In this document: positions 12,640-45,023 of the stretch, piece after piece
Layout: each line of letters begins with the position of its first letter
Position numbering within the stretch: the stretch's first letter is position 1
Assembly: GCA_964586385.1 (NCBI GenBank)
Contig: CAZPIM010000001.1
Span: 24,710 to 88,709, forward strand
Length of the DNA stretch: 64,000 bases
Source: an uncultured Anaerolineaceae bacterium
GTDB lineage: Bacteria > Chloroflexota > Anaerolineae > Anaerolineales > Anaerolineaceae
Direction: 5' to 3'
Notes under the pieces: generated by a model
Databases searched by the model: none
Told to the model about the DNA's origin: nothing
The model's input: only the letters and a program-made list of their open reading frames with translations
Made by a program: the position numbers and the translations under genes

Positions 12640-13425
12640 ATGACATTTCGGGGTACTAATATCCACCCCAAGCCTTTACGAATTTATCAAATAATATGGA
12701 ATTTGATTGATTTAATCTTTCCTCCACATTGTTCAGGATGTGATGTTTTAGGTTATCGCTGGTGTAAAGATTGCGAGTCACAGGTTAAGAAAATATCGCC
12801 CCCATTTTGTCTTAAATGTGGATCCCCGGAGAAATCTTCGAATTTTGCGAAAGATCATTGCATTGATCTGCTACAATCAATCGATTTTATCCGGTCTTAC
12901 GCAATTTATGAACCTCCCCTTTCCAGTGCAATAAAGAAATTAAAGTATCAAAACGATATTGGTATAGCACAAGTGCTGGCATTTTATTTGGTGGAATTGT
13001 ACAATGATTTAAATCTGAATATTGATTATGTCATCCCGGTTCCATTAGGAAAGAATAGAATTAAAGAACGTGGTTACAATCAAGCATCCCTAATCGCCAA
13101 ACCTTTTTCTTTGGCCATAGGACGTCCAATGAAAACACAGGCGCTTTTCCGGAATAAAGAGACTAAATCCCAAGTTGGTTTATCAAGGGAAGAACGCTCC
13201 GAAAATGTATCAGGTGCATTTACTGTCGATAATTCCAATCTACTTGGAAAGAATATTATTTTAATTGATGATGTAACCACAACCGGATCAACCTTAGAAG
13301 CCTGTGCAAGAGAATTGAAAAATAAAGGAGCAAAAAATATAGTAGGATTAACAATTGCAAGGGCAGTAAATACAAAATATGGTTTCAGTGACTTTGTATC
13401 AAATCAGGAAATTACCAAAACCTAA
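12640..13425 (+). CDS. comF: ComF family protein (ComFC-like phosphoribosyltransferase with an N-terminal double zinc ribbon)
   Basis: 261 aa. The N-terminus has CSGC...CKDC...CLKCG, and the PRT motif is IILIDDVTTTGSTL. Confidence 0.85.
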   Translation: MTFRGTNIHPKPLRIYQIIWNLIDLIFPPHCSGCDVLGYRWCKDCESQVKKISPPFCLKCGSPEKSSNFAKDHCIDLLQSIDFIRSYAIYEPPLSSAIKKLKYQNDIGIAQVLAFYLVELYNDLNLNIDYVIPVPLGKNRIKERGYNQASLIAKPFSLAIGRPMKTQALFRNKETKSQVGLSREERSENVSGAFTVDNSNLLGKNIILIDDVTTTGSTLEACARELKNKGAKNIVGLTIARAVNTKYGFSDFVSNQEITKT

Positions 13426-13441
13426 TTCCTAGGAGGATAAA

Positions 13442-14005
13442 ATGGCGATCAAAGTTGATATCTTTGCAAAAAATTTAAAAGTTACAGAGCGAATTGAAGA
13501 TTATTTAAATAAGAAAATAACGAAACTTTATCGATATTTAAATGATATTGAAGAAACCCGGGTCGATCTATCGTACCTCAAATCCGCTCGCAGCGCATCT
13601 GATAGGCAAGTAGCTCAGATCACTATCAGAGGGCGTGGATATATCCTAAGAACTGAAGAAAGAGCAGAAGATATTTTTGCAGCAATAGATGAAGCGATCG
13701 AAAAAATGCAACGCCAAATTGCCAGGTTAAAAGGGAAACGTGATAAAGGCCGCGGTGATGGTACGCCTCTTTCTGAATTAGCATCTGAATTACCAGAACC
13801 TATCGATATGGAAGATGCACCTGAAATCGCTCGAAGGAAAACATTCACTCTTATCCCGATGGATGAGTTGGAAGCAATTGAGCAAATGAAATTATTGGGC
13901 CATGAGAATTTCTTTGTTTTTTATGATATGAATTCTGAAAGCGTAAATGTTTTATACCGAAGACGAGATGGTGGCTACGGTATAATTGAACCCAAATTAG
14001 GATAA
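13442..14005 (+). CDS. hpf: Ribosome hibernation-promoting factor, long form
   Basis: 187 aa. It has an N-terminal sigma-54-modulation/RaiA fold and the C-terminal dimerisation domain typical of long HPF (FFVFYDMNSESVNVLYRRRDGGYGIIEP). An AGGAGG RBS is present. Confidence 0.9.
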   Translation: MAIKVDIFAKNLKVTERIEDYLNKKITKLYRYLNDIEETRVDLSYLKSARSASDRQVAQITIRGRGYILRTEERAEDIFAAIDEAIEKMQRQIARLKGKRDKGRGDGTPLSELASELPEPIDMEDAPEIARRKTFTLIPMDELEAIEQMKLLGHENFFVFYDMNSESVNVLYRRRDGGYGIIEPKLG

Positions 14006-14023
14006 AAATAATTGTAAACGTAT

Positions 14024-14058
14024 AAAGGATGTTCGAAATTTGCGAACATCCTTTTTTT
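14024..14058 (+). terminator. Intrinsic terminator after hpf
   Basis: AAAGGATGTTCG (14024-14035) pairs with CGAACATCCTTT (14043-14054), followed by a T-run. Confidence 0.8.
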
Positions 14059-14077
14059 ATACTTCCTGTCTTCTACC

Positions 14078-14106
14078 TTGCAACCTATATCTCGATAGAC
14101 TATAAT
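14078..14106 (+). promoter_or_regulatory. Sigma-70-type promoter candidate for efp
   Basis: TTGCAA (14078-14083), a 17-nt spacer, then TATAAT (14101-14106). Confidence 0.5.
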
Positions 14107-14140
14107 TCACCTGTTAAATTTCGTATAAGAAGGTGTATGG

Positions 14141-14701
14141 ATGATTGATGTAAATGAATTACGTAAAGGTGTTACTTTTGAATATGATGGAAATTTATTC
14201 AAAGTTATCGAGTATAGCCATAACAAACCCGGGCGTGGTGGAGCGACAATTCGCATTAAAGCCCGCAATTTGATTTCGGGTTCTAATATTGAAAAAACTT
14301 TCAATTCCGGCGAAAGAGTTCAAAATGTTCGCCTCGATTATCACAATGCACAATATTTATATTCGGATTCAGATTTTTATTATTTTATGGATAATGAAAA
14401 TTTCGAACAATATCCATTGAAAAGTGATATTTTAGGAGAGTCCGTTAACTTCTTAAAAGAAAACATGGATGTAAAAATCACATTTTACAATTCTTTAGCA
14501 ATTGATATTGAATTACCGATGTCTGTAGAATTAAAAGTCACCTGGGCAGAATTGGCCATTCGTGGAGATACAGCCTCTGCACAAACTAAAAAAGTTAAAG
14601 TTGAGACTGGTGCAGAAGTACATACACCATATTTTATTGAGACTGGTGATATTATTCGGGTTGACACGCGTACCGGGGAATATTTAACCAGGGTTTCTTA
14701 A
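14141..14701 (+). CDS. efp: Elongation factor P
   Basis: 186 aa. KPGRGGATIRIK aligns with the KPGKG loop of other EF-Ps, and the C-terminus reads GDIIRVDTRTGEYLTRV. The tip residue is Arg32 (CGT at 14234-14236). Confidence 0.95.
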   Translation: MIDVNELRKGVTFEYDGNLFKVIEYSHNKPGRGGATIRIKARNLISGSNIEKTFNSGERVQNVRLDYHNAQYLYSDSDFYYFMDNENFEQYPLKSDILGESVNFLKENMDVKITFYNSLAIDIELPMSVELKVTWAELAIRGDTASAQTKKVKVETGAEVHTPYFIETGDIIRVDTRTGEYLTRVS

Positions 14702-32249: not shown

Positions 32250-32678
32250 TCATTCATTTATTTGTGAATCTAAATATGATTGAAGAATTACAGTAGCTGC
32301 CAATTCATCCATGTGACCTTTTCGTTTCTTTCTTTTTACTCCCATTTGCATTCGGGCTGCTCTAGCTTCATTCGTGCTGCCACTTTCGTCCCAAAGCACA
32401 ACTTGAATACCCGTGAATAATTGAATCATATCCGCCAATCGCTTACCTTTCCTTCCGGATGGAGACAATTCTCCTTCTTCATCTATTGCAATACCTACCA
32501 CAATTAATTTAACATCGTTTTTCTCGGCAACGGACACAATCATTTTGGCGTCGGTTTCCCTTTTCTCATGTTCAATAACGAATAGTGGATTAGCTATTGT
32601 TCCAGATAAATCACTTATTGCCAGACCAATTCTTTTATCACCTGGATCAACACATAAAATTCGATTATTCTCATTCAT
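32250..32678 (-). CDS. ruvX: Putative pre-16S rRNA nuclease / Holliday junction resolvase-like YqgF
   Basis: 142 aa. It contains ILCVDPGDKRIGLAISD and DESGSTNEA. Confidence 0.9.
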   Translation of the reverse strand: MNENNRILCVDPGDKRIGLAISDLSGTIANPLFVIEHEKRETDAKMIVSVAEKNDVKLIVVGIAIDEEGELSPSGRKGKRLADMIQLFTGIQVVLWDESGSTNEARAARMQMGVKRKKRKGHMDELAATVILQSYLDSQINE

Positions 32679-34173
32679 GAAGATTTACCTGAATGCGAAA
32701 TGGGATAAAAGGTAGCCGTTTCAGGAAGTTGGGGTTGATAGAAATATCACTTTGTTTTTTCAGATATTCACTTTTACTTAAAATACTGATAGCTGCGTTT
32801 ATACTTTTACCAGCAATCTGGTTTTTTATTAGATCGGTTTCAACAATTGGCTTTAACAATTCTGTTGCGCTTATTTTCCATCGCATATTGCCATTAATGT
32901 CAAAAACGGGTTGTGTAGTGATTTCTGTGGACATTGAATCAGGAATTCTTGTGTAACCAACCGGGAGATTCGCATTCATTATTTTATTAAGAATGTCATC
33001 CAGATCTTGTTGCTCTATCATCCAAACCGAGAATTCACAGCTTAGTTGATATTGAAAACTTTCTCCCGGAACATTCAACTCTGGAATTTTTTTCTCGTAA
33101 ATTATTTTTGACAATTTTAGAGAATCTTCCGGGAACAAGTAACCTTCGGGATGTTCCTTCTTAATTTCGTCGATTATTTCCTTTTCCATTTTTTCCAATA
33201 ACGCTGATTTGGCAAATTCATAATCAAATTCAGATGGAGATAATGTCTTTGTTTCGCTTCCACCACGAAATTCATCTGGATTCTCAACCATTATGTTTCC
33301 GCCAATTGGTCCTTCAATAGCATTGATCGCCATAGGAGGGACATTGCCAATAATACCGCCTTCTAAACTAACCGCTTGAACCTTTGCTTCCGAATTGATT
33401 ATGCCACTCAAAGTAAGAGCATTTAATGTCTTGAATCGGATCGGAGGTTCGGAGGAAGTCCGCACGATTGTTCCTTTCGGAATTGTCATTCCCCTGTCAG
33501 TTAGATTCCGGAATTTAAGATCGCCTATTGCAAAATTGCTTGGAATTCTAATCGTCCCGGTACTATTACCCTGATAGGTATCAGTCTTTACTTTGTAAAC
33601 AATCTCAAGTGGTATTGCTCCTGAAACGTTGCTGGATTTTATGTCCGGATTTGTCCATAAATCAAGGTCTATTTCCACCGGTTTTACAATTGTTGTTACG
33701 TCAACAATTGCAGAAGGAATGAAAAAAGTTATTAGTGCGATTAGTGATAAGCATCCTAGCAGGAAAAATAAAATCCTGATGAATCGATTTAATACCGGTG
33801 GCTTTCTTTTAATGATTTGAGATAAGAACTTGAATCTTGCTAATCTTTGCTCCTGATTTTCTAAAAAAGTTTTTCTCCTGATTTTTTTTGATCTTCTCCA
33901 TGGCTTTTTATTCGCCTCGGGGATTGAATTAAAAACTTGAATGCCTGCAAATTTGCTGACCTCAATAATTTTTTTCTCATCACAAACAATTGCCAATTGA
34001 GATCCAAGAGATTCTGCTTTTCTTAAAAGCAGCAACAAATCTTTTTCATTTAAAGAAACAGTGCCCTTATCCGGCCAAACGATCAAGATTCGATTAGCTT
34101 TGCTCCAATTCATATTATCAATGATTGAAAAGCAGTCATCAAAAGAATTAAGCTGAAGCAAATGTGTTTTCAT
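32671..34173 (-). CDS. Hypothetical single-pass membrane protein
   Basis: 500 aa. A soluble N-terminal domain of about 100 aa is followed by a basic stretch, one TM helix (ILFFLLGCLSLIALITFFIP), and a large region that looks beta-rich. It overlaps ruvX by 8 nt. I recognise no motif. Confidence 0.6.
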   Translation of the reverse strand: MKTHLLQLNSFDDCFSIIDNMNWSKANRILIVWPDKGTVSLNEKDLLLLLRKAESLGSQLAIVCDEKKIIEVSKFAGIQVFNSIPEANKKPWRRSKKIRRKTFLENQEQRLARFKFLSQIIKRKPPVLNRFIRILFFLLGCLSLIALITFFIPSAIVDVTTIVKPVEIDLDLWTNPDIKSSNVSGAIPLEIVYKVKTDTYQGNSTGTIRIPSNFAIGDLKFRNLTDRGMTIPKGTIVRTSSEPPIRFKTLNALTLSGIINSEAKVQAVSLEGGIIGNVPPMAINAIEGPIGGNIMVENPDEFRGGSETKTLSPSEFDYEFAKSALLEKMEKEIIDEIKKEHPEGYLFPEDSLKLSKIIYEKKIPELNVPGESFQYQLSCEFSVWMIEQQDLDDILNKIMNANLPVGYTRIPDSMSTEITTQPVFDINGNMRWKISATELLKPIVETDLIKNQIAGKSINAAISILSKSEYLKKQSDISINPNFLKRLPFIPFRIQVNLHE

Positions 34174-34828: not shown

Positions 34829-34902
34829 TTTAAATGTGACGAACTATAAGGGATTATAATATGATAAATTATTTCTGATTTATGTGGAGAACGAAAATAA
34901 AA

Positions 34903-35766
34903 ATGATCAAAAAAGTGCTCATATTTGGACTTGCAATGGTTTTTTCTGCATGCAATTTGCCAACAACCAGCTCAAATTCCCCGGATTTAGTTGCGACGCA
35001 AGTATCTCAAATTTTGACACTTACACCACTTAGTCCTTCAATTACCACCGAAGAATCAGATATAGTCTCAACTTTGTCGTTTACAACAACACCTACACCA
35101 ACACCTGAATTAACCAACACGCCAACATTCACCCCCACTATAATCCTTACGAATACAAATACACCAATTCCAACGGATGCTTTGATACCTTCCGGTGACC
35201 CAACTTGGAAAGAAATTTTTGGGAATGGAACCAGTTTCGGAATTAACCCAGAAGGTTATGATGATGGAAACACAAAGATATTCGTTGAGGATGAAACATT
35301 AACATTAATTAGTATAAATAGTACTGGTTGGCGAGGGTGGAGATTAGCAAGTCAAAAACCTGTAAACTATTTTCTAAAAGCCGATTTTAAAATTGAAACT
35401 TGCTCAGGAAGCGACCAATACGGAATCATCACACAATCACCTGATTATGAAAATGGATATGGTTATTATTTTGGATTGACATGTGATGGAAGGTATAGCA
35501 TTCAAAAGTGGAACGAAAGCGGTCTTTCAAACCTTGATGGTTGGAGTTCTTCTTCAGAAATTTTGACAGGTGATGCAAAAGAAAACTCCGTTTCCATTTT
35601 GAAAACAGGTGAAAATTTCAAATTCTTCGTTAATAACGTGTTGGTTTCTCAGGTAAACGATAGTTACTTTAAAAATCCCGGATTTTTTGGTCCTTTCATT
35701 GCAGGAATTTCCACCCCTAACTTTACTGTTCGATTACAAGAAATTGCATACTGGGTAATCCAATAA
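34903..35766 (+). CDS. Predicted lipoprotein with a Thr/Pro-rich linker and a beta-rich C-terminal domain
   Basis: The start was moved to the ATG at 34903. The signal peptide has a lipobox (LAMVFSAC). The TTTPTPTPELTNTPTFTPT linker is followed by a C-terminal domain of unknown function. Confidence 0.6.
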   Translation: MIKKVLIFGLAMVFSACNLPTTSSNSPDLVATQVSQILTLTPLSPSITTEESDIVSTLSFTTTPTPTPELTNTPTFTPTIILTNTNTPIPTDALIPSGDPTWKEIFGNGTSFGINPEGYDDGNTKIFVEDETLTLISINSTGWRGWRLASQKPVNYFLKADFKIETCSGSDQYGIITQSPDYENGYGYYFGLTCDGRYSIQKWNESGLSNLDGWSSSSEILTGDAKENSVSILKTGENFKFFVNNVLVSQVNDSYFKNPGFFGPFIAGISTPNFTVRLQEIAYWVIQ

Positions 35767-35784
35767 ATTTCAGGAGCATCATAC

Positions 35785-36360
35785 ATGTTTCAGGCAAATA
35801 TTTCACAACAGCAAGTGATTGAGTATGCAAGGAGAAAATTCCTGGAGGATCCAGTTTATCTTGATACGGAAACAACGGGTTTGGAAAAAAGTGACGAAGT
35901 TGTTGAAATCGCTGTCATTGATAAAAATGGAAACATCCTCATTAATACATTAATTAAACCAAAATCGATTATCCCCGATTCCGCATCGGCGATCCATCAT
36001 ATCACCAACGAAATGGTAAAAGATTCCCCGGAATTTCCGGATATTTGGCCAAATATTCAGGAACTGATCAAAAACAGACCCATAGGCATGTATAACGCAG
36101 AATTTGATGTCAGATTAATAAAACAATCAATGGAAAAATATAACAAATTCATTCCACAAAAGAATATCGCTTTTGACATAATGAAAATATTTTCAGATTT
36201 CAGAGGGATTGTCGATCCCAGAAGAAAAGCAATGCGAAGATTCAGATTAGAAGAAGCCGGCCGATATTTTGGTATTCCGATGCCAAATAGCCATCGAGCC
36301 CTAGATGATACGAAGTTAACCCGAGCAGTCCTTCATGCACTTATCGGTGAAAAATACTAA
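35785..36360 (+). CDS. DEDDh 3'-5' exonuclease (DnaQ/epsilon-like)
   Basis: 191 aa. ExoI is VYLDTETTGL, ExoII is YNAEFDVRLI, and ExoIII is HRALDD. Confidence 0.8.
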   Translation: MFQANISQQQVIEYARRKFLEDPVYLDTETTGLEKSDEVVEIAVIDKNGNILINTLIKPKSIIPDSASAIHHITNEMVKDSPEFPDIWPNIQELIKNRPIGMYNAEFDVRLIKQSMEKYNKFIPQKNIAFDIMKIFSDFRGIVDPRRKAMRRFRLEEAGRYFGIPMPNSHRALDDTKLTRAVLHALIGEKY

Positions 36361-36641
36361 ACAAAACAAATCAGGTGATATCCAATAATTTCCAATAATT
36401 ATTGCCAATAGGAAGATTTGATGAACTTTTAATCTCCTCAATTGCGTGATTTATAACAATAATTCTTCATGAGTAAATATTTTTACAAATTGGTTACTTA
36501 AGTAAGGTAATTAGGAAATGTTAATTTAAAATACCAGAAATTAAACGACAACGATCCAATAATGTTTTGATAAGGAAAAAATAGCAATTTCAAATAGAAA
36601 AGTATAGAATTTAAGAATATCTGTTCCAGAAAGTAGTCTTG

Positions 36642-38744
36642 ATGAATTTTCTTGAAAATCAAGTTGAAGTTGCTAAGCAAGCCTTAATCAAAAATATCTT
36701 CCTGTCAGGACAGGCAGGAACCGGCAAATCAACCACTGCACTTGCCTATCTAAATTTATTGCGAAATGAAAAAATATCAGGTAACAGGATTCTCGTTCTG
36801 GTTCCCCAACGGTCATTAGGGATTTCGTATCAAAAATTTCTGGATGATTGTGGTGATTTTAATGGCGGTGTTGTAACAATTCAAACCCTGGGTGGTGTGG
36901 CACAAAGAATGATTCGCCTTTTTTGGCCTGTCATAGCACCTTTGACCAATTTTTCAAAAGCAAAGCATAAACCAATTTTTTTGACCCTGGAAACTGCTCA
37001 GTATTATTTAAATAAAGTGTGTGAACCATACTTTGAAAAAGGTTATTTTGAATCAATTCGGACAGAAAAACCACGAATTCTCTCGCAAATCTTAGATAAT
37101 TTGAATAAAGCTGCTGTTGTTGGCTTTTCACATGAAGAAATAGGAAACAGGCTTAAATCCGCCTGGTCTCAAGAACCAGGCCACGTGAATGCCTATGATC
37201 AGGCACAGGAAATTGCCTGCAAATTTCGTGAATTTTGCTTTGAGAACAATTTCCTGGATTTCTCGTTGCAAATCGAAATTTTTTCGCGTTTTCTATGGAC
37301 TTCTTTTCTTTGCAACGAATATTTAAAAGACCAATACGATTATTTGATTTATGAGAACATTGAAGAAGATGTCCCCATTTTTCATGACATCTTACTTGAT
37401 TGGTTACCAAAATTTACGGGTAGCTTGATCATTCGGGACGATAATGCCGGATTTCGGTCATTTTTAGGAGCAGATCCAGTCAGTGCACAAAGATTTGAAA
37501 AAACTTGTGACTTACAATTTCAATTTAAAGATCAATTAAATGAAACCCATGAAATGCAATTACTCAAAAACCTTTTTTCTACAGTATTTCAATACCATGC
37601 ATCTTATGAAACAAGCGTTGATATTCAATCTGTGCTCACTGTTTCGTTTAATTCCTATTATCCAGAAATGATTGAAAAAATAACTAACCAGATATCCGAT
37701 TTAATCAATGTTGGTGTCCCACCAGGGGAAATCGCAATACTTTCTCCATTTGTTAGTGACGTTCTTCGCTATCAAATACAAAATCAATTTAAAAAACACG
37801 GAATCGAAATATCTTCTCATCGGCCTTCAAGGAGTCTTCGGGAAGAACCATTGACACAGGTGTTATTGACCTGGGCAAAAATAGCGCATCCGGAATGGGA
37901 AATGCGACCATCGGCTTATGAATTGCGCTTTGCATTAATGCACACAATTCAGGAAATGGATCCAATTCGTGCTGATCTGTTAGTAAGGTTAATTTTTAAA
38001 CCTAGAAATGATTTCTGGATCGCTGATATCACACAAACAAAACTGGAATTTCAGGAAAGAATTACCCTCACACTTTGTCATAGATATCAATTCCTTTTGG
38101 AATGGCTTTCTAATGCAAAGGACGACGATTCACATCTGGATATTTTCATTTCAAGATTATTTGGTGAGGTTTTATCACAACATGGATTTGGGTTTTTCGA
38201 AAATTATTCTGCTGCTGAAATTACCTCAAGATTAATTGAATCGATTCAAAAATTTCGTAAGGTTGTATCAACCAATCTTGAATTTGATGCAAATCATTTA
38301 TCTAAAGAGTATATCCAAACAATCAATAAAGGGATTATTGCCGCTTTGTATCTGGAATCATGGGAACAATCAAATGAAAATGCCGTTTATTTATCACCGG
38401 CATACACATTTCTTATGCAGAATCGATCCGTAAAATACCAATTTTGGTTAGATATCGGCAGTATGGGCTGGTGGCAAAGATTATTACAACCATTGACACA
38501 ACCGTATGTTCTGAGCCGAAATTGGAAAACTGGGGAAAAATGGACAGATGTTAATGAGTTTGATAATAACCAGACAAATCTTTCGAAATTGATCCAGGGA
38601 TTATTAAATAGATGCAGTGATGGATTATATGTTCATTCGACTGGATACAATGAAAGTGGGAATGAAGAAAAAGGACCTTTATTAAAATCGATTCAAAGAA
38701 TTTTGCGAAATTCAAAAAAGCCGATGGAGATTAAAGATGTTTAA
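36642..38744 (+). CDS. AddB-like degenerate SF1 (UvrD-like) ATPase without a nuclease domain
   Basis: 700 aa from the ATG at 36642. Walker A is GQAGTGKST. The UvrD motif II and III positions are degenerate (YENIEED and DDNAGFRSFLGAD). No PD-(D/E)XK motif or Cys cluster is present. It overlaps the next gene by 8 nt. Confidence 0.65.
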   Translation: MNFLENQVEVAKQALIKNIFLSGQAGTGKSTTALAYLNLLRNEKISGNRILVLVPQRSLGISYQKFLDDCGDFNGGVVTIQTLGGVAQRMIRLFWPVIAPLTNFSKAKHKPIFLTLETAQYYLNKVCEPYFEKGYFESIRTEKPRILSQILDNLNKAAVVGFSHEEIGNRLKSAWSQEPGHVNAYDQAQEIACKFREFCFENNFLDFSLQIEIFSRFLWTSFLCNEYLKDQYDYLIYENIEEDVPIFHDILLDWLPKFTGSLIIRDDNAGFRSFLGADPVSAQRFEKTCDLQFQFKDQLNETHEMQLLKNLFSTVFQYHASYETSVDIQSVLTVSFNSYYPEMIEKITNQISDLINVGVPPGEIAILSPFVSDVLRYQIQNQFKKHGIEISSHRPSRSLREEPLTQVLLTWAKIAHPEWEMRPSAYELRFALMHTIQEMDPIRADLLVRLIFKPRNDFWIADITQTKLEFQERITLTLCHRYQFLLEWLSNAKDDDSHLDIFISRLFGEVLSQHGFGFFENYSAAEITSRLIESIQKFRKVVSTNLEFDANHLSKEYIQTINKGIIAALYLESWEQSNENAVYLSPAYTFLMQNRSVKYQFWLDIGSMGWWQRLLQPLTQPYVLSRNWKTGEKWTDVNEFDNNQTNLSKLIQGLLNRCSDGLYVHSTGYNESGNEEKGPLLKSIQRILRNSKKPMEIKDV

Positions 38745-40983
38745 TCCCAGACCCAGGCAGGTAGAAGTATTAAAGTATCGTCAGGGAAAAATGGGAGTTT
38801 CAGCTGTCCCGGGTTCCGGCAAGACCCATACGCTTTCATTTTTAGCTGCAAATTTAATTTCTGAAGGTTATATTAATGACGAACAGGAAATCCTGATTGT
38901 CACTCTGGTAAACTCTGCTGTAAATAATTTTTCAAACCGAATTTCATCATTTATGAAAGAATTCGGACTGCTACCTAATTTGGGGTATCGGGTATTGACA
39001 TTACATAGCCTCGCGAACCAAATCGTACGTGAGAGACCGGACCTGGTTGGAATCGATAATAATTTTCAAATAATTGATGAGAGAGAGACCAATCAAATTC
39101 TCAATTCTTCGGTAGAAAATTGGATTCACCGGAACCATGATTTAATAAATTCTTGGTCAAAGGAAAATTTTTCAATAACTAACCCAAAAATGAAATCTGC
39201 CTGGCGGGAAGCAATAATTACAATTGCAAAAAATTTTATCCGTCAGGCAAAGGATCTCCAATATTCGCCGCATAACATTCAAGAAAAACTTCATTTTTTA
39301 AATATTTCGGACCCTTTACTTAGTTTAGGCGTTGATATCTATCATGATTATCAACGAGCATTGAATTATCGCTCCGCAGTAGATTTTGACGACTTGATTC
39401 GATTCGCTTTAATTGCATTGAAAAGTGACCAGGAATTTTTAACGCGTTTACGATATCGATGGCCTTATATTTTAGAAGATGAAGCCCAGGATAGCAGCCT
39501 GCTCCAGGAGCAAATTCTCCAATTATTGTGTGGCAGTAATGGCAACTGGGTTAGAGTCGGGGATCCGAATCAAGCAATTTATGAAACCTTTACTACTGCC
39601 AGTCCCGAACACCTAAAAAATTTCTTACTCCAACCAGATGTGGTGGCAAAATCCTTGCCCAATTCTGGCCGATCAGCTTTATCAATTATTAATTTGGCGA
39701 ATGAATTGATACTTTGGTCAAATTCATTCCATCCGATTCCGGATTTACGAAATTCTTTATCAAAACCGCTCATTTTGCCTTCACCTGTTGGTGATCCCCA
39801 ACCTAATCCACCAGATAAACCCAACATAGTAACGCTGTATGATAAAAAAATGTCCGCCATCAAAGAATTAGAGACTGTTGCATTTTCGGCCAGGAAATGG
39901 TTGATCGAAAATCCGGATCAAACTGCCGCAATTCTGGTTCCAAGAAATGATCGTGGCGCAAAATTGGTTGAAATATTACAAAATAATAAAATCCCATATA
40001 TAGAAATGTTGCAATCCAGTCAATCTACAAGAGAAACTGCAAAGATTCTGGCTGAAATCCTTGGGTTCATTGAAAATCCCACTCAAATTTTAAATATCAC
40101 ACGCATATTTTTATCATTCGATAAAATTTTCTTCAATCTGGAAAAAAATGAGAGGGAAGAAATCGTTCGGCTATTGCGATCATGTAGCAATATCGAGGAA
40201 TTCCTTTATCCAAAACCTTTGAATGACTGGCTGGATCGAATCGCATTACTCTCCATAGAAACAAAGGAATTTGTTGTACCGATTCTGGAGAAATTCCGGA
40301 TTTACCTGAACAAATGGCAGGAAGGGGCTGATTTGCCGATTCACCAATTTTTAATTTCTGTTGGTCAGGATCTTTTCCAGGAACAAACCGAACTGGCATT
40401 AACTCATAAATTAGCTTTGATTTTGGAGCAACTAGCGCATAATCATCCGGATTGGCAATTACCAGACTTCGTAAAGGAATTGGATCTTATCTCAGATAAC
40501 CGAAGGAAAGTTCTTGGATTTACAGAAGAAGATACAGGTTTCAATCCGGATTTGCATAAAGGCAAAGTCGTGGTGGCTACATACCACAAAGCCAAAGGCC
40601 TCGAATGGGACAGGGTTTATTTGACTTCTGTAAATAATTATGATTTCCCATCAGCACAAAAAAGTGATGACTCAATCAGCGAAAAATATTTTTATCGAAC
40701 TCCCATTAATTTGGAGGCTGAGGCAGTTGCCAAATTAAAAGCATTAGTCAATGAAGATATAGAAGAACTTTATCTTGAATATGGATCTACTACGGAAAAA
40801 TCAAGACTTGATTATGCCTCTGAAAGATTAAGGTTATTCTATGTTGGAATAACCAGGGCAAAAAAGGAGTTAATCGTTACATGGAATACTGGTGACACAC
40901 ATCACAGTTCGTCCAATCCGCTAACCGCGTCTATCCCTTTCCTGGCATTACGCACATATTTGGAGACTAACATTCATGATTAA
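38737..40983 (+). CDS. UvrD/PcrA/AddA-like SF1 helicase without a nuclease domain
   Basis: 748 aa. Helicase motifs are intact: AVPGSGKTHT, ILEDEAQDS, VGDPNQAIY, ATYHKAKGLEWDRV and FYVGITRAKKEL. Confidence 0.85.
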   Translation: MFNPRPRQVEVLKYRQGKMGVSAVPGSGKTHTLSFLAANLISEGYINDEQEILIVTLVNSAVNNFSNRISSFMKEFGLLPNLGYRVLTLHSLANQIVRERPDLVGIDNNFQIIDERETNQILNSSVENWIHRNHDLINSWSKENFSITNPKMKSAWREAIITIAKNFIRQAKDLQYSPHNIQEKLHFLNISDPLLSLGVDIYHDYQRALNYRSAVDFDDLIRFALIALKSDQEFLTRLRYRWPYILEDEAQDSSLLQEQILQLLCGSNGNWVRVGDPNQAIYETFTTASPEHLKNFLLQPDVVAKSLPNSGRSALSIINLANELILWSNSFHPIPDLRNSLSKPLILPSPVGDPQPNPPDKPNIVTLYDKKMSAIKELETVAFSARKWLIENPDQTAAILVPRNDRGAKLVEILQNNKIPYIEMLQSSQSTRETAKILAEILGFIENPTQILNITRIFLSFDKIFFNLEKNEREEIVRLLRSCSNIEEFLYPKPLNDWLDRIALLSIETKEFVVPILEKFRIYLNKWQEGADLPIHQFLISVGQDLFQEQTELALTHKLALILEQLAHNHPDWQLPDFVKELDLISDNRRKVLGFTEEDTGFNPDLHKGKVVVATYHKAKGLEWDRVYLTSVNNYDFPSAQKSDDSISEKYFYRTPINLEAEAVAKLKALVNEDIEELYLEYGSTTEKSRLDYASERLRLFYVGITRAKKELIVTWNTGDTHHSSSNPLTASIPFLALRTYLETNIHD

Positions 40984-41800
40984 TCTTAATCATTTTATAT
41001 TTAGTGCATACAAACTGCAGGATTATCTTGATTGCGAAAGACGGTTTGAATTAAAACACATTTTAAAACAATCCTGGCCAGCCATTCAATCGGAACCGGT
41101 CCAACTACTTGAGCAACAAATGCAAATAGGTGAACAATTTCACTTGTTAGCCCAACAATTTTTTACAAATATTCCTGAAGAATTGGTAGAAAAACAAATC
41201 GAAAATGATCAACTTGCCAGCTGGTGGAAAGATTTTCAAAATTTTTCACGCGTTTATTTGACCGAACCTCATTTTGCTGAATATAAAATCGGATATAAAC
41301 TAAACGAATTCCGCCTGACAGCGATTTATGATTTATTAGTGATGGAAAATAATAGAAAATTTAAGATTATTGATTGGAAAACCAATAAAAATAAACCGAA
41401 AAGCCATCAGATCAAACAAACAGTTCAATCCAGACTATATCCTTCAATTTTGGCACTAAATGGAGAGAATTTCCCCAAAACCAATCGTATCGACCCTGAG
41501 CAAATTGAAATGATTTATTGGTTCGCTAATTTTCCTGATCAACCGGAAATTATTCAATATTCAAGTTATCAACTTCAGGAAGATCTTGATTTCATAAAGT
41601 CTTTAATAAATCAAATATCTTCCAAAAATATAGGTGAGTTTTTAAAAACTGACCATACGCAATTATGCAATTTCTGCAAGTATCGATCTCTTTGTGAACG
41701 GGGAATTTCCGCAGGGTCGGTTGATGAATTGGATGAAGAAATTTGGCAGGAACAAATAATCGATATAGATTTTTCACAAATTGGAGAAATTGAATTTTAA
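40976..41800 (+). CDS. Stand-alone RecB/AddB/Cas4-type PD-(D/E)XK nuclease with Fe-S cluster cysteines
   Basis: 274 aa. It has an N-terminal Cys (YLDCERRF), the nuclease motifs IYDLL and KIIDWKT, QSRLY, and the C-terminal cluster CNFCKYRSLC (CX2CX5C). Confidence 0.8.
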   Translation: MINLNHFIFSAYKLQDYLDCERRFELKHILKQSWPAIQSEPVQLLEQQMQIGEQFHLLAQQFFTNIPEELVEKQIENDQLASWWKDFQNFSRVYLTEPHFAEYKIGYKLNEFRLTAIYDLLVMENNRKFKIIDWKTNKNKPKSHQIKQTVQSRLYPSILALNGENFPKTNRIDPEQIEMIYWFANFPDQPEIIQYSSYQLQEDLDFIKSLINQISSKNIGEFLKTDHTQLCNFCKYRSLCERGISAGSVDELDEEIWQEQIIDIDFSQIGEIEF

Positions 41801-44127
41801 TGGTTGCGCAAAAGGAATGGACAAGAAAACAATTTCCAAAAATTCCAAAGGAATTTGAAGAAAATTTTCCAAATAAATGGGTGCAACAACGATTCGTTGA
41901 ATTAAATATCCAAAACTTGGATTCCGCAAAAGCATTTATTGACCCAGATTTGTTTCAACCAAGAGACCCGCGAGAATTGCCTGATCTCGAAAAAGCAGCC
42001 ATAAGAATTCAAAATGCGATCCTTGAACATGAATCCATTGGTATTTGGGGAGATTTTGATGTCGATGGGCAAACATCAACAACGCTTTTGGTACAAGCAT
42101 TAAGACTTCTGGGTGCCAATCCACAATACCACATTCCTAATCGTGATAAGGAATCACACGGGATTCGGTTGCAAAATCTAAAAGAATTTTTGATTAATCC
42201 AATCAGTTTATTGATAACATGCGACACAGGCATTAGTGAAAATGATTCGATCGCTTTTTGCAATCAGAATGGAATCGATGTAGTCATCACGGATCACCAT
42301 GCGCTACCATCCTTTCTGCCGGATGCGTTTGCCATTGTAAATCCACAAAGGTTACAGGATGACCACCCACTCAAATCGTTAGCCGGAGTTGGTACAGCCT
42401 ATAAATTAATTGAGTATTTATACAAACTCTTTAATAAAGAATCTGATTTACATTTATTTGTCGATCTTGTAGCTTTGGGAACCATAGCAGATGTCGCCGT
42501 ATTAAGCCCGGAGAACCATTTCCTGGTTCAAATTGGAATTGAAAAAATCAGATCTGGAAATCGGTTGCTGATTAAAGAAATTCTCCAAAAAAAAGAAATA
42601 AATTCTGAATTTTTTAATGAAACCAGCATTTCCTTTGTCATTGCTCCATTATTTAATGCTTTAGGAAGATTGGATGATGCAGAACAAATTGTTGAATATT
42701 TCCTTTCAACAAATAATCAGGAAACGAGAATTTTTGCAAACATCCTTGATAATTTAAACGAAAAAAGAAAATTAATTACGGAACAAATAACTGATGCAAC
42801 GCTGGCATTAATCAGAAAAGAAAGATCTGAATCCGGAAATTCGATCGTTTTGCATCACCCGGATTGGCACCCAGGCGTTTTAGGAATTGTAGCTAATCGT
42901 CTTGTGGAGTTATTTAATAAACCGGTCATATTATTAACTGGAAATCCAGATCAACTAATTCGGGGGTCTGGGAGATCGACTGATGGTGTAAATATCATTG
43001 AAGCTATACGAAATTCCAGCCAATTATTGACTCATTTCGGTGGTCATACGATGGCAGCCGGGTTATCGCTTCCTTTTGAAAATTTAGAAGTCTTCAAAAA
43101 AGAATTCGAAAAGTCAGTTCAACATCAACTTTCCGAAAAAAAAATTTCACTAGACTTTATGGTTGATGGATTTATTGACTTCAACCAGATCTCGTTAGAT
43201 TTCGTTAAAGAACTGGAAATATTATCACCATTTGGATCCGGAAATCCACGTTTTATTTTTGCATGTAAAAATGTGAATATCGCCAGGACAGCAATTTTTG
43301 GGAAAAATAAACAACACCTAAAATTTTTTACAACTGATGAAAACAATTATCCAGTGGAATTATTGTGGTGGCAGGGTGCTAACCAATCTATACCCGATAC
43401 AAGCATTGATATTGCATTCCGTCCTGGTAAATCAGTCAATAAAGGGCAGGAGCAATTACAGCTCGAGATCGTTAAAATTCGTCCGTCAGAAAATGCTTAT
43501 GAAAAAATCAAGTCCGACAGTAAGCAATTGGAAATTTTTGACTTAAGACCGGAAAAACAAATAAATCTCGAAAAATTAATTAAAATCCCAAATAGTTTTA
43601 TTTGGGCAGAAGGATTGGAAAACAAAGAACTGCTTCCATTCAATCATCGAATTGATCTACATCCGGCTGAGAATCTAATCATTTACACTTGCCCGCCGAG
43701 CTTAGTTGAAATTGCAAAAGTTTGGAAATCGGTTAATCCAAAAAAACTTTATCTTTGCAGTGTAATACCAGAAAATAATACGATTAATTCACTTGTTTTA
43801 AAAGTTTCCGGAATGATCAACCTGGCAATCAGTCAACGATCAGGCATTTTTGATTTGGATCGTGTGGCTGCGTCGACTGGACACCGTACGAAAACAATCC
43901 GTGCTTTATTAAATTATCTTCAAGCGAAAGGTAAAATATCAATCAAAGAACATCCTGACACAAGCTTAATAATTGTTTTTAACGGGTCGGAAGATAAACA
44001 AATGGCTTTACTGTATGAAAATCAACTACGTTTTCTTTTCCAGGAGACAATATATTTCCAAAAATGGTATCAAAAAATAAATTCAGCGCAATTAATGGAT
44101 GAGGTTGTAGATCTTTTTTCGAGATAA
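41800..44127 (+). CDS. recJ: Single-stranded-DNA-specific 5'-3' exonuclease RecJ (long form)
   Basis: 775 aa. DHH motifs are GIWGDFDVDGQTS, ITCDTG and VVITDHH. The DHHA1 motif is GGHTMAAG. Its ATG shares one nucleotide with the upstream stop (TAATG). Confidence 0.9.
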   Translation: MVAQKEWTRKQFPKIPKEFEENFPNKWVQQRFVELNIQNLDSAKAFIDPDLFQPRDPRELPDLEKAAIRIQNAILEHESIGIWGDFDVDGQTSTTLLVQALRLLGANPQYHIPNRDKESHGIRLQNLKEFLINPISLLITCDTGISENDSIAFCNQNGIDVVITDHHALPSFLPDAFAIVNPQRLQDDHPLKSLAGVGTAYKLIEYLYKLFNKESDLHLFVDLVALGTIADVAVLSPENHFLVQIGIEKIRSGNRLLIKEILQKKEINSEFFNETSISFVIAPLFNALGRLDDAEQIVEYFLSTNNQETRIFANILDNLNEKRKLITEQITDATLALIRKERSESGNSIVLHHPDWHPGVLGIVANRLVELFNKPVILLTGNPDQLIRGSGRSTDGVNIIEAIRNSSQLLTHFGGHTMAAGLSLPFENLEVFKKEFEKSVQHQLSEKKISLDFMVDGFIDFNQISLDFVKELEILSPFGSGNPRFIFACKNVNIARTAIFGKNKQHLKFFTTDENNYPVELLWWQGANQSIPDTSIDIAFRPGKSVNKGQEQLQLEIVKIRPSENAYEKIKSDSKQLEIFDLRPEKQINLEKLIKIPNSFIWAEGLENKELLPFNHRIDLHPAENLIIYTCPPSLVEIAKVWKSVNPKKLYLCSVIPENNTINSLVLKVSGMINLAISQRSGIFDLDRVAASTGHRTKTIRALLNYLQAKGKISIKEHPDTSLIIVFNGSEDKQMALLYENQLRFLFQETIYFQKWYQKINSAQLMDEVVDLFSR

Positions 44128-44574: not shown

Positions 44575-44627
44575 TTTTATTGTTTAGAAGTTGTTGGTTA
44601 TTTTCGAATTTTTTTTCGGGAGTTTTT

Positions 44628-45023
44628 ATGGGTCGTGGATTAAATAAAGTGATGATTATTGGTCAACTCGGCCGTGATCCAGAAATGAGGTTTACTCCTT
44701 CGGGTAGACCTGTCACAACATTTACAATTGCCTGTAATCGCACCTGGAGTTCTGCAGATGGTGAACGCCATGTTGAAACCGAATGGTTCAACATTGTTAC
44801 ATGGGGAAACCTGGCAGAAATTTGCAAACAATTTTTATCCCGAAATCAACAGGTTTACATTGAAGGAAGATTGCAATCCCGCAGATGGGAAGATTCCGAA
44901 GGATGTAAACACACAAGCATGGAAATCGTTGCTACCGAAATGATGATTCTGGGTGATCGCAAAGAAAATAACCATCATATTACTTCGTCTGAATTTGAAA
45001 TAAATGAGAATTACCCTTTTTAG
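44628..45023 (+). CDS. ssb: Single-stranded DNA-binding protein
   Basis: The start was moved to the ATG at 44628 (MGRGLNKVMIIGQLGRDPEMRFTPSGRPV...). It has an OB fold and a C-terminal tip ...NENYPF, where the usual acidic tip ends in IPF. Confidence 0.95.
   Translation: MGRGLNKVMIIGQLGRDPEMRFTPSGRPVTTFTIACNRTWSSADGERHVETEWFNIVTWGNLAEICKQFLSRNQQVYIEGRLQSRRWEDSEGCKHTSMEIVATEMMILGDRKENNHHITSSEFEINENYPF

Follow-up and report, generated by a model that had tools for sequence, protein, structure and literature searches.

RecBCD, AddAB and AdnAB are the textbook machines of DNA break processing, and the start of recombinational repair has been little studied in lineages such as Chloroflexota. The lead motor of AddAB and AdnAB runs on the 3′ strand, while the AddB or AdnA partner targets ends and uses its own nuclease on the 5′ strand (PMC3064778, PMC5314763). 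AddB is a superfamily 1 (SF1)-like subunit with a Walker A motif only, which targets AddA to ends and recognises Chi; this Walker A does not power unwinding and stabilises the Chi complex (PMC3064778). In AdnAB, the AdnA nuclease deals with the 5′ strand, and the enzyme does not require the AdnA ATPase (PMC5314763). RecJ is a processive 5′-3′ exonuclease of single-stranded DNA (ssDNA) that needs a 3′-5′ helicase at blunt or 3′-tailed ends (PMC4846377), and Cas4 enzymes are 5′-3′ ssDNA nucleases (cited in PMC5704561). We analysed a 64,000-nucleotide stretch from an uncultured Anaerolineaceae bacterium (contig CAZPIM010000001.1; hereafter the window), in which four genes at 36642-44127 encode a diverged SF1A-fold protein, a UvrD-type helicase, a Cas4-family nuclease and RecJ (open reading frames ORF1 to ORF4). 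This module is a split, RecJ-containing helicase-nuclease, whose largest subunit lacks a family annotation and represents an unnamed family. With a probability of roughly 0.55, we read the locus as a DNA-end or gap resection module that is conserved and inherited with the chromosome, like a disassembled AddAB or AdnAB with RecJ built in.

AddAB of Bacillus subtilis (PDB 3U44/4CEJ) resembles the module in having one active SF1A 3′-5′ motor with an SF1A-fold partner that retains only Walker A, an Fe-S ("iron staple") PD-(D/E)XK nuclease, and operonic genes. The module differs in that its nuclease is a separate polypeptide and its only PD-(D/E)XK enzyme, the AddA-type 3′-strand nuclease being absent, in that RecJ belongs to it, and in the conserved D-N-x-E-E motif of ORF1. 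ORF2 is not fused to a nuclease and scores 86 bits against the 708-bit cutoff of the NCBIfam AddA model; ORF1 is unfused as well and has no NCBIfam AddB match, the Fe-S nuclease being the separate ORF3. In structure, mycobacterial AdnAB (PDB 6PPR/9NP6) came closest to the module, its AdnB motor matching ORF1 and its AdnA nuclease domain matching ORF3, and it combines a lead motor with a lagging subunit whose ATPase is dispensable. Unlike the module, AdnAB has canonical ATPase motifs and a fused C-terminal nuclease in each of its subunits, AdnB provides a 3′-strand nuclease, and RecJ plays no part. At our locus canonical motifs occur in ORF2 only and neither SF1 subunit bears a nuclease; the resemblance to AdnAB is structural only. 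An earlier note, made from the sequence of this DNA, had proposed a split AddAB-type machine: the SF1A folds and the AdnA-like nuclease agree with that proposal, whereas the AddA and AddB family thresholds are reached by none of the proteins.

RecJ-dependent RecF-pathway resection (RecQ or UvrD with RecJ and SSB, and also RecBC(D-) with RecJ in E. coli) likewise couples a 3′-5′ helicase to RecJ to make a 3′ tail, and the RecJ C-terminal domain binds the acidic, Phe-ending SSB C-terminus, SSB-Ct (PMC4846377, PMC5314763). Its genes are unlinked, however, and it has neither an Fe-S nuclease nor a diverged SF1 partner, whereas in the module the activities are hard-wired in one translationally coupled operon. 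By analogy, the module would be functionally most like AddAB/AdnAB and the RecQ/UvrD-RecJ-SSB route. Hudaiberdiev et al. (2017) describe an operon of unfused UvrD and Cas4-like (pfam12705) genes, "mostly Clostridiales", in a non-defence context, with a suggested role in repair, and a monophyletic solo-Cas4 group in Thermoanaerobacterales and many Chloroflexi (PMC5704561). This operon is probably the same cluster as the module, although that paper does not mention RecJ, reports no diverged SF1 partner family in the text read and gives no mechanism or experiment (PMC5704561). Our literature searches found no experimental work on the module and no characterised system of the same architecture, as the earlier note had supposed, except that the UvrD and Cas4-like pair had thus already been noticed in Clostridiales. 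They also found no paper linking Anaerolineae to AddAB or RecBCD, and no mention of Chloroflexota in Rocha 2005.

Conservation of the four-gene block

All four ORFs lie on the plus strand, successive genes overlap and no DNA separates them. ORF1 and ORF2 share the 8 nt ATGTTTAA (38737-38744, read in context as ...GGAGATTAAAGATGTTTAA), ORF2 and ORF3 share the 8 nt ATGATTAA (40976-40983, ...GGAGACTAACATTCATGATTAA), and ORF3 and ORF4 meet in a TAATG at 41798-41802 (...GGAGAAATTGAATTTTAATG). The overlapping stop and start codons imply that the four proteins are co-translated in fixed proportion. Two 8-nt overlaps, a TAATG and the lack of intergenic DNA were what the earlier note had described, and both the ORF table and the junction reads bear this out; the motifs it quoted are all found in the translations (GQAGTGKST, YENIEED and DDNAGFRSFLGAD in ORF1, and five motifs in ORF2), and profile searches upheld its domain assignments, with ORF1 and ORF2 nuclease-free, ORF3 a stand-alone PDDEXK_1 nuclease and ORF4 RecJ.

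ORF1 was scanned against one genome per species and found in at least 596 species, the best 80 matches all belonging to Anaerolineae or other Chloroflexota. Its homologues form more than 4,000 clusters at 90% identity, with 577 representatives at E<1e-30 in a 50%-identity library. Linkage was counted in the best 80 loci; some of these genomes are related, and the counts do not represent independent events. ORF1 and ORF2 are adjacent in 62 of 67 informative loci, ORF1, ORF2 and ORF3 occur together in 52/62, and the complete set including RecJ is present in 41 of the 57 informative Anaerolineae loci. The junctions are retained too: ORF1 and ORF2 overlap in 40/59 loci (by exactly 8 nt in 31 of those), ORF2 and ORF3 in 36/47, and ORF3 and recJ overlap or lie no more than 30 nt apart in 35/40. 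As these overlaps recur in homologous loci, the gene arrangement is more than chance.

The strongest evidence that the block is conserved comes from distant relatives. We sampled nine such loci (21-39% identity), and in six of them all four genes lie within 10 kb. Gene order is identical to that of the window in a "Clostridiales" metagenome-assembled genome (MAG; L081, which also carries a spore-photoproduct-lyase gene near the module), in Acetivibrio clariflavus (L086) and in a Bacillota MAG (L089). Elsewhere the order is permuted to ORF1-nuclease-RecJ-helicase (L084), an N6/N4 DNA methyltransferase gene (13238-14347) is inserted between the nuclease gene and recJ (L085), or the block is split into an ORF1-helicase and a nuclease-RecJ pair by three unrelated genes (L090). 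Three genes without RecJ are found in L088, the ORF1-helicase pair only in L083, and ORF1 only in L087. The neighbourhood comparison that the earlier note had called for thus shows a block conserved as a unit, RecJ included, across Anaerolineae, and also in Clostridia and elsewhere.

One complete copy is carried by pSR56, a 56.5-kb plasmid of Salinibacter ruber M8 (Rhodothermota; L091, NC_014028.1 10001-17884), where the genes are annotated as a hypothetical protein, an ATP-dependent helicase, a PD-(D/E)XK nuclease and recJ. Its proteins are 38, 41, 34 and 33% identical to ORF1-4 of the window, as against 25-28, 32-35, 23-28 and 28-31% for the Clostridia copies. Because all four pSR56 proteins are nearer to the window than the Clostridia copies are, we conclude that the cassette was transferred whole, its own recJ included. 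Cultured carriers of the module include A. clariflavus, Ornatilinea apprima and S. ruber M8, and it is present in at least about 600 species-level genomes according to the ORF1 scan.

The four proteins

ORF1 has no curated family: there was no NCBIfam match, and Pfam matches to P-loop, DEAD, UvrD N-terminal and ADDB_N models were all sub-threshold, the ADDB_N model matching 4 of 16 ORF1 homologues with a best E of 1e-3. PDB sequence and profile searches returned only P-loop matches to DEAD-box proteins, which are uninformative on the fold, so that structure prediction was needed. The AlphaFold (AF2) model built from 118 homologues (pLDDT 88, pTM 0.85) is of high confidence and has the full-length SF1A helicase fold with its four domains kept. 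Foldseek matched it to UvrD (E 3e-20, TMq 0.59), to the helicase-like region of AddB (TMq 0.62), to AdnB (TMq 0.67) and to RecB (about 0.53). The fold and the retained Walker A, as in AddB (PMC3064778), support the earlier suggestion of an AddB-like diverged subunit. ORF1 and ORF2 showed no significant similarity in BLASTP, and recent paralogy of the two therefore cannot be claimed.

The Walker A lysine K29 of ORF1 is still invariant in relatives of 24-30% identity, as are E241 and E242 of the atypical motif II, N239 being nearly so. Of motif III only a remnant is left (D..G.R.F.GAD), without its glutamine; the motif V residues are missing from the family, a motif VI-like G-L-x-x-R is present, and positions resembling motifs III and VI hold conserved arginines such as R272 and R657. 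The word "degenerate", used in the earlier note, is right with respect to the helicase consensus and wrong as a sign of decay, the D-N-x-E-E signature being strictly conserved; as judged from the alignment, the altered motif II is under strong purifying selection, with no sign of decay. The asparagine at the catalytic-base position suggests that ORF1 binds ATP without fast hydrolysis, for which AddB would be a precedent. We propose a non-motor or lagging role for ORF1, comparable to that of the helicase-like part of AddB, AdnA or RecC.

ORF1 could instead be an active ATPase or translocase in which E241 or E242 acts as a displaced catalytic base, and the module would then have dual motors like AdnAB or RecBCD. 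The invariance of Walker A and of both glutamates, the conserved R272 and R657 and the intact four-domain fold of the high-confidence model speak for this possibility, but nearly all members have N where the catalytic glutamate would be, the family lacks the motif V residues and the glutamine of motif III, and the analogous sites in AddB and AdnA add little or nothing to unwinding (PMC3064778, PMC5314763). We regard a second motor as very unlikely.

The length of ORF1 family members is always about 700 aa, and a search for nuclease fusions among some 150 of the best family representatives found none. Two relatives of odd length, P0357 and P0384, were considered as natural nuclease fusions and rejected, as they resemble gene-call chimeras. 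A lone ORF1-like protein, annotated as UvrD-helicase domain-containing, is encoded at 902741-904714 of the Ilyobacter polytropus megaplasmid pILYOP01 (L092). It is 21% identical across 95% of its length, the family thus reaching Fusobacteriota, and its neighbourhood holds no helicase, nuclease or recJ genes.

ORF2 has a complete set of UvrD motifs in its translation (PGSGKTHT, ILEDEAQDS, VGDPNQAIY, YHKAKGLEWD and YVGITRAKK) and ends after UvrD_C, with no PD-(D/E)XK nuclease domain. It scores well below the NCBIfam equivalog cutoffs for PcrA (137 bits against 911), Rep (133/951) and UvrD (117/1144), as it does for AddA, and is also far under that for RecB. It matches the PADLOC GajB models at 1e-45, as any UvrD-like protein would. 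From its motifs, we propose that ORF2 is the 3′-5′ motor of the module.

ORF3 scores 96.5 bits with PF12705, whose cutoff is 22 bits. Residues C20, C231, C234, C240, D119, D133-W-K135 and Y155 are invariant in 118 homologues, and Q151 is nearly so. The cysteines follow the C...CX2CX5C pattern of the Cas4/AddB iron staple, and the features of the Cas4/pfam12705 family, QxxxY included, are all present. Since the Fe-S cysteines and the catalytic residues are invariant, ORF3 is predicted to be catalytically active. A single-sequence search of PDB with ORF3 gave no match and a profile search marginal matches only. Its AF2 model (pLDDT 85) was closest in Foldseek to the AdnA nuclease domain (TMq 0.60, rmsd 4.6-4.8), followed by ACE1 (TMq 0.58), then Exo5, Cas4 and MGME1 and, more weakly, AddB, consistent with the Fe-S RecB-type nuclease named in the earlier note. 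ACE1, a cyanobacterial pAgo-associated Cas4 family enzyme (PDB 9IAB), shares the Cas4-family fold and four Fe-S cysteines with ORF3; unlike ACE1, the module has no Argonaute gene, and sequence similarity between ORF3 and ACE1 is marginal (profile E 0.012). By analogy with these enzymes, we propose that ORF3 is a 5′-strand nuclease.

About 36 aa follow the last Fe-S cysteine of ORF3; acidic residues make up 30% of this tail and basic ones 5%, and 102 of 118 homologues end in [ED]-[ILV]-x-[FYW]. The window protein ends in IGEIEF and that of pSR56 in EEIEF, while of the four Clostridia-type copies with a tail three end in PEISY, PEIAY or PEIPY; the A. clariflavus and L089 nucleases retain an acidic tail with other endings (EELT, KIYQ). 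In L088, the only sampled distant nuclease-bearing locus without an adjacent recJ, and a single case, the nuclease (13866-14630) stops right after the cysteine cluster and has no tail. In L090 (16751-17539) the tail is kept and the last Fe-S cysteine is replaced by N (CxxC...N). The ORF3 tail shares its format, acidic and Phe-terminal, with the C-terminus of SSB, which reads DDDIPF in E. coli. The SSB of the window (44580-45023, in rpsF-ssb-rpsR just 3′ of the module) ends in ...EFEINENYPF. The C-terminal domain of D. radiodurans RecJ binds SSB-Ct (EDDLPF) through a pocket for the terminal Phe (PMC4846377). We infer by analogy that the ORF3 tail may be an SSB-Ct-like docking peptide that would link the nuclease with RecJ or, conceivably, with the SF1 pair.

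ORF4 scores 490.2 bits with TIGR00644, above the 396.9-bit cutoff, and carries DHH, DHHA1 and RecJ_OB domains, each above its Pfam cutoff, which identifies it as RecJ; its match to RecJ in PDB (8y30) has an E of 2e-83. Neither a Pfam domain nor a PDB sequence matches its C-terminal extension, which is homologous across the module RecJs of L001, L090, L085, L086, L081 and L091, from three phyla (E 6e-75 to 5e-10).

Proposed mechanism and its weighing

If the four proteins form a resection module, ORF2 as its sole canonical motor would translocate along the 3′-ended strand and unwind DNA from a break or gap. ORF1 would pair with it as an AddAB-like heterodimer; as the non-motor or lagging partner, it would bring the motor to DNA ends, act as a guide for ssDNA and keep the nuclease in place. 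The displaced 5′ strand would be threaded through ORF3 and cut there, and RecJ would then degrade this strand processively 5′-3′ and extend resection, being recruited possibly through the SSB-Ct-like tail of ORF3 and its own module-specific C-terminal domain. The product would be a 3′ ssDNA tail passed to SSB and RecFOR/RecA. Because the module has no 3′-strand (AddA/AdnB-type) nuclease, this tail would arise without Chi-type attenuation, and a machine that preserves the 3′ strand may do without a Chi-type signal. RecJ had been suggested in the earlier note as a second strand-degrading activity. This did not hold: RecJ attacks the same 5′ strand as AddB/AdnA-type and Cas4-type nucleases (PMC5314763, PMC4846377) and, its polarity duplicating theirs, it cannot replace the missing AddA/AdnB-type 3′-strand nuclease.

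Several observations weigh against a resection module of this kind. Two 5′-strand nucleases look redundant. RecJ is missing from the cluster in 16 of the 57 Anaerolineae loci, and ORF1 stands alone among unrelated genes in L029 and L066, with housekeeping neighbours, and in L087; given such solitary ORF1 loci and RecJ-less clusters, the four genes are not obligatorily linked. PDB sequence matches of ORF2 rank PcrA, Rep and UvrD first, with AddA and AdnB after them. The Foldseek scores of ORF1 do not tell AddB or AdnB from plain UvrD, and ORF1 has no significant sequence similarity to AddB, AdnA or RecC. Finally, the pSR56 copy is plasmid-borne, beside toxin-antitoxin and recombinase genes.

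Some of these points would suit a looser arrangement, in which separate enzymes of one pathway (RecFOR presynapsis, fork or gap processing, mismatch repair) share an operon and no AddAB-like heterodimer is formed: a UvrD paralogue and RecJ acting as they do in Deinococcus or E. coli, together with an accessory ATPase and a nuclease of the solo-Cas4 type. ORF2 is indeed nearer to PcrA, UvrD and Rep than to AddA, the cluster is split or incomplete in L083, L087, L088, L090, L029 and L066, and resection in known systems needs just UvrD or RecQ with RecJ and SSB (PMC4846377, PMC2806897). Against this stand the ORF1/ORF2 and ORF2/ORF3 stop/start overlaps kept in most loci, the adjacency of ORF1 and ORF2 in 62 of 67, the non-canonical SF1 fold of ORF1, for which an independent function is not obvious, the docking-type tail conserved on ORF3, and the joint transfer of all four genes to a plasmid. 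A loose repair operon therefore seems rather unlikely to us.

Taken together, the features of the resection module would describe a fourth class of break resection beside RecBCD, AddAB and AdnAB, a four-subunit, Chi-independent resectosome acting on the 5′ strand only. Such a class would pair a UvrD-type motor with an unnamed family of ATP-binding pseudo-helicases (D-N-x-E-E), tether a free Cas4-family nuclease by an SSB-mimicking tail to a dedicated RecJ lineage with its own C-terminal domain, and be vertically inherited in Anaerolineae and some Clostridia, yet mobile between phyla as a cassette (pSR56). We advance this joint reading tentatively, as a possibility. Should the four proteins work together, AddAB-type helicase, pseudo-helicase and nuclease parts would be able to exist as separate, exchangeable subunits, and RecJ would be physically integrated, joining the "RecBCD-like" and "RecF-like" resection routes.

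Genomic context, mobility and expression signals

The features of the locus are listed in Table 1. Upstream of it, the window encodes RuvX, YceG, a pseudouridine synthase and a DEDDh exonuclease, and downstream rpsF-ssb-rpsR, a SurA-like peptidyl-prolyl isomerase, SMC, RNase III, ScpA and MutS. The GC content stays level at about 36%, genes for integrases, transposases, Argonaute or restriction-modification and cas genes are all missing from the module neighbourhood, and a search of the window for repeat arrays found none. No ORF1 relatives were detected in 50,697 phage records or in IMG/VR, and ORF1 matched 2 of 72,556 plasmids, the whole module occurring on a plasmid once (pSR56). In that plasmid it is flanked by genes for a recombinase, a SocA-type antitoxin, XRE regulators and a DEAD/DEAH helicase of about 1,300 aa. 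The behaviour of mobile cargo, which the earlier note held would speak against a resection machine, is thus seen once; the context in the window is housekeeping, without mobile features and without phage or IMG/VR matches.

Table 1. Coordinates of the four genes and their features in the window.
Feature	Coordinates	Strand	Description
AT-rich intergenic leader	36361-36641	+	presumed promoter region of the operon; sole intergenic DNA before the four genes
ORF1	36639/36642-38744	+	diverged SF1A (UvrD-fold) protein, 700 aa counted from ATG (36642); structure model, fold matches
ORF1 Walker A	36708-36731	+	GQAGTGKS, residues 23-30; G23, G28, K29 invariant in 118 homologues
ORF1 atypical motif II	37350-37370	+	YENIEED; family signature D-N-x-E-E replaces canonical DExx
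ORF2	38737-40983	+	intact UvrD-type SF1A helicase, 748 aa; UvrD-helicase 2e-48, UvrD_C 5e-23
ORF3	40976-41800	+	stand-alone Cas4-family Fe-S PD-(D/E)XK nuclease, 274 aa; PDDEXK_1 (PF12705) 3e-27
ORF3 C-terminal linker	41696-41797	+	disordered, acidic, ending IDFSQIGEIEF-COOH; pLDDT <50
ORF4 (recJ)	41800-44127	+	RecJ 5′-3′ ssDNA exonuclease, 775 aa; TIGR00644 equivalog
RecJ C-terminal extension	43477-44124	+	residues 560-775, ~215 aa, common to module-linked RecJs

Defence as the primary function was considered and rejected, the PADLOC matches being generic (GajB) or at family level (Cas4-like) and the partner genes being absent: no GajA or OLD-type gene lies near ORF2, as Gabija would have, and no cas genes or arrays lie near ORF3, as would be expected of a Cas4 in CRISPR adaptation. 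The module might nevertheless serve mainly to restrict foreign DNA, by degrading incoming linear or plasmid DNA or by feeding another immune system, as RecBCD does. In S. elongatus, losing a Cas4-like nuclease, UvrD, a RecJ paralogue (recJcy) or a PD-(D/E)XK protein raises plasmid maintenance and transformation (PMC10653904), and AddAB and RecBCD are mostly missing from cyanobacteria (PMC12094033). The cas4/uvrD/recJcy set offers a suggestive parallel to the module, which may explain the common phenotype of these genes. That shared anti-plasmid phenotype, the top PADLOC match of ORF3 to a pAgo-associated Cas4-like nuclease (5e-13) with ACE1 among its top folds, the toxin-antitoxin, recombinase and large-helicase genes around the pSR56 copy and the N6/N4 methyltransferase gene within the L085 cluster would all fit restriction. 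They are set against core housekeeping neighbours and a syntenic position in the window and most relatives, the lack of Argonaute, CRISPR array, restriction-modification or other defence genes nearby, GajB matches that reflect generic UvrD similarity with GajA absent, near-absence from plasmids and absence from phage and viral collections, and a class-wide vertical conservation that is unusual for defence islands. We consider restriction as the main role unlikely.

The non-coding DNA flanking the block consists of a 278-bp AT-rich leader 5′ of ORF1 and 87 bp 3′ of recJ. An in-frame TTG at 36639 precedes the ORF1 ATG at 36642; we take the ATG as the start because that is where all homologues begin, as does a 700-aa database protein of 100% identity. 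GGAG, as a Shine-Dalgarno sequence, is found 7-12 nt 5′ of every start in the four-gene block. Scans of the locus for promoters and terminators were uninformative, promoter-like sites being fewer than in shuffled sequence, and scans of the window with Rfam and for tRNA gave no match.

The leader contains a Cheo/LexA-box-like site, GAATATCTGTTC, at 36615-36626, 16-27 nt 5′ of the ORF1 start and one mismatch away from GAAC-N4-GTTC, the core of the Gram-positive LexA (Cheo) box. Of 76 homologous loci, 12 have a box with one mismatch or none in the 150 nt preceding ORF1, where 3.6 would be expected (p ~3e-4, relatedness uncorrected); the whole window shows no enrichment of such sites, with 14 matches against 22 expected. 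Chloroflexota LexA presumably recognises the GAAC-N4-GTTC box, and the site gives a weak hint of putative SOS control of the operon.

Directly 5′ of ORF1, window positions 34882-36360 (+) encode a 294-aa protein, without Pfam or NCBIfam matches, followed by a 191-aa DEDDh/DnaQ-family 3′-5′ exonuclease. This pair precedes the module in about 27 of the 80 Anaerolineae loci, those of the closest relatives, and neither the Clostridia copies nor that of Salinibacter have it; it could reflect plain synteny or be a lineage-specific 3′-end nuclease accessory. Further upstream, a 500-aa ORF on the minus strand (32671-34173) has a weak Baseplate_J-like Pfam match (3e-7) and no NCBIfam match; it overlaps the ruvX start by 8 nt and sits in a housekeeping ruvX-yceG-ROK kinase string.

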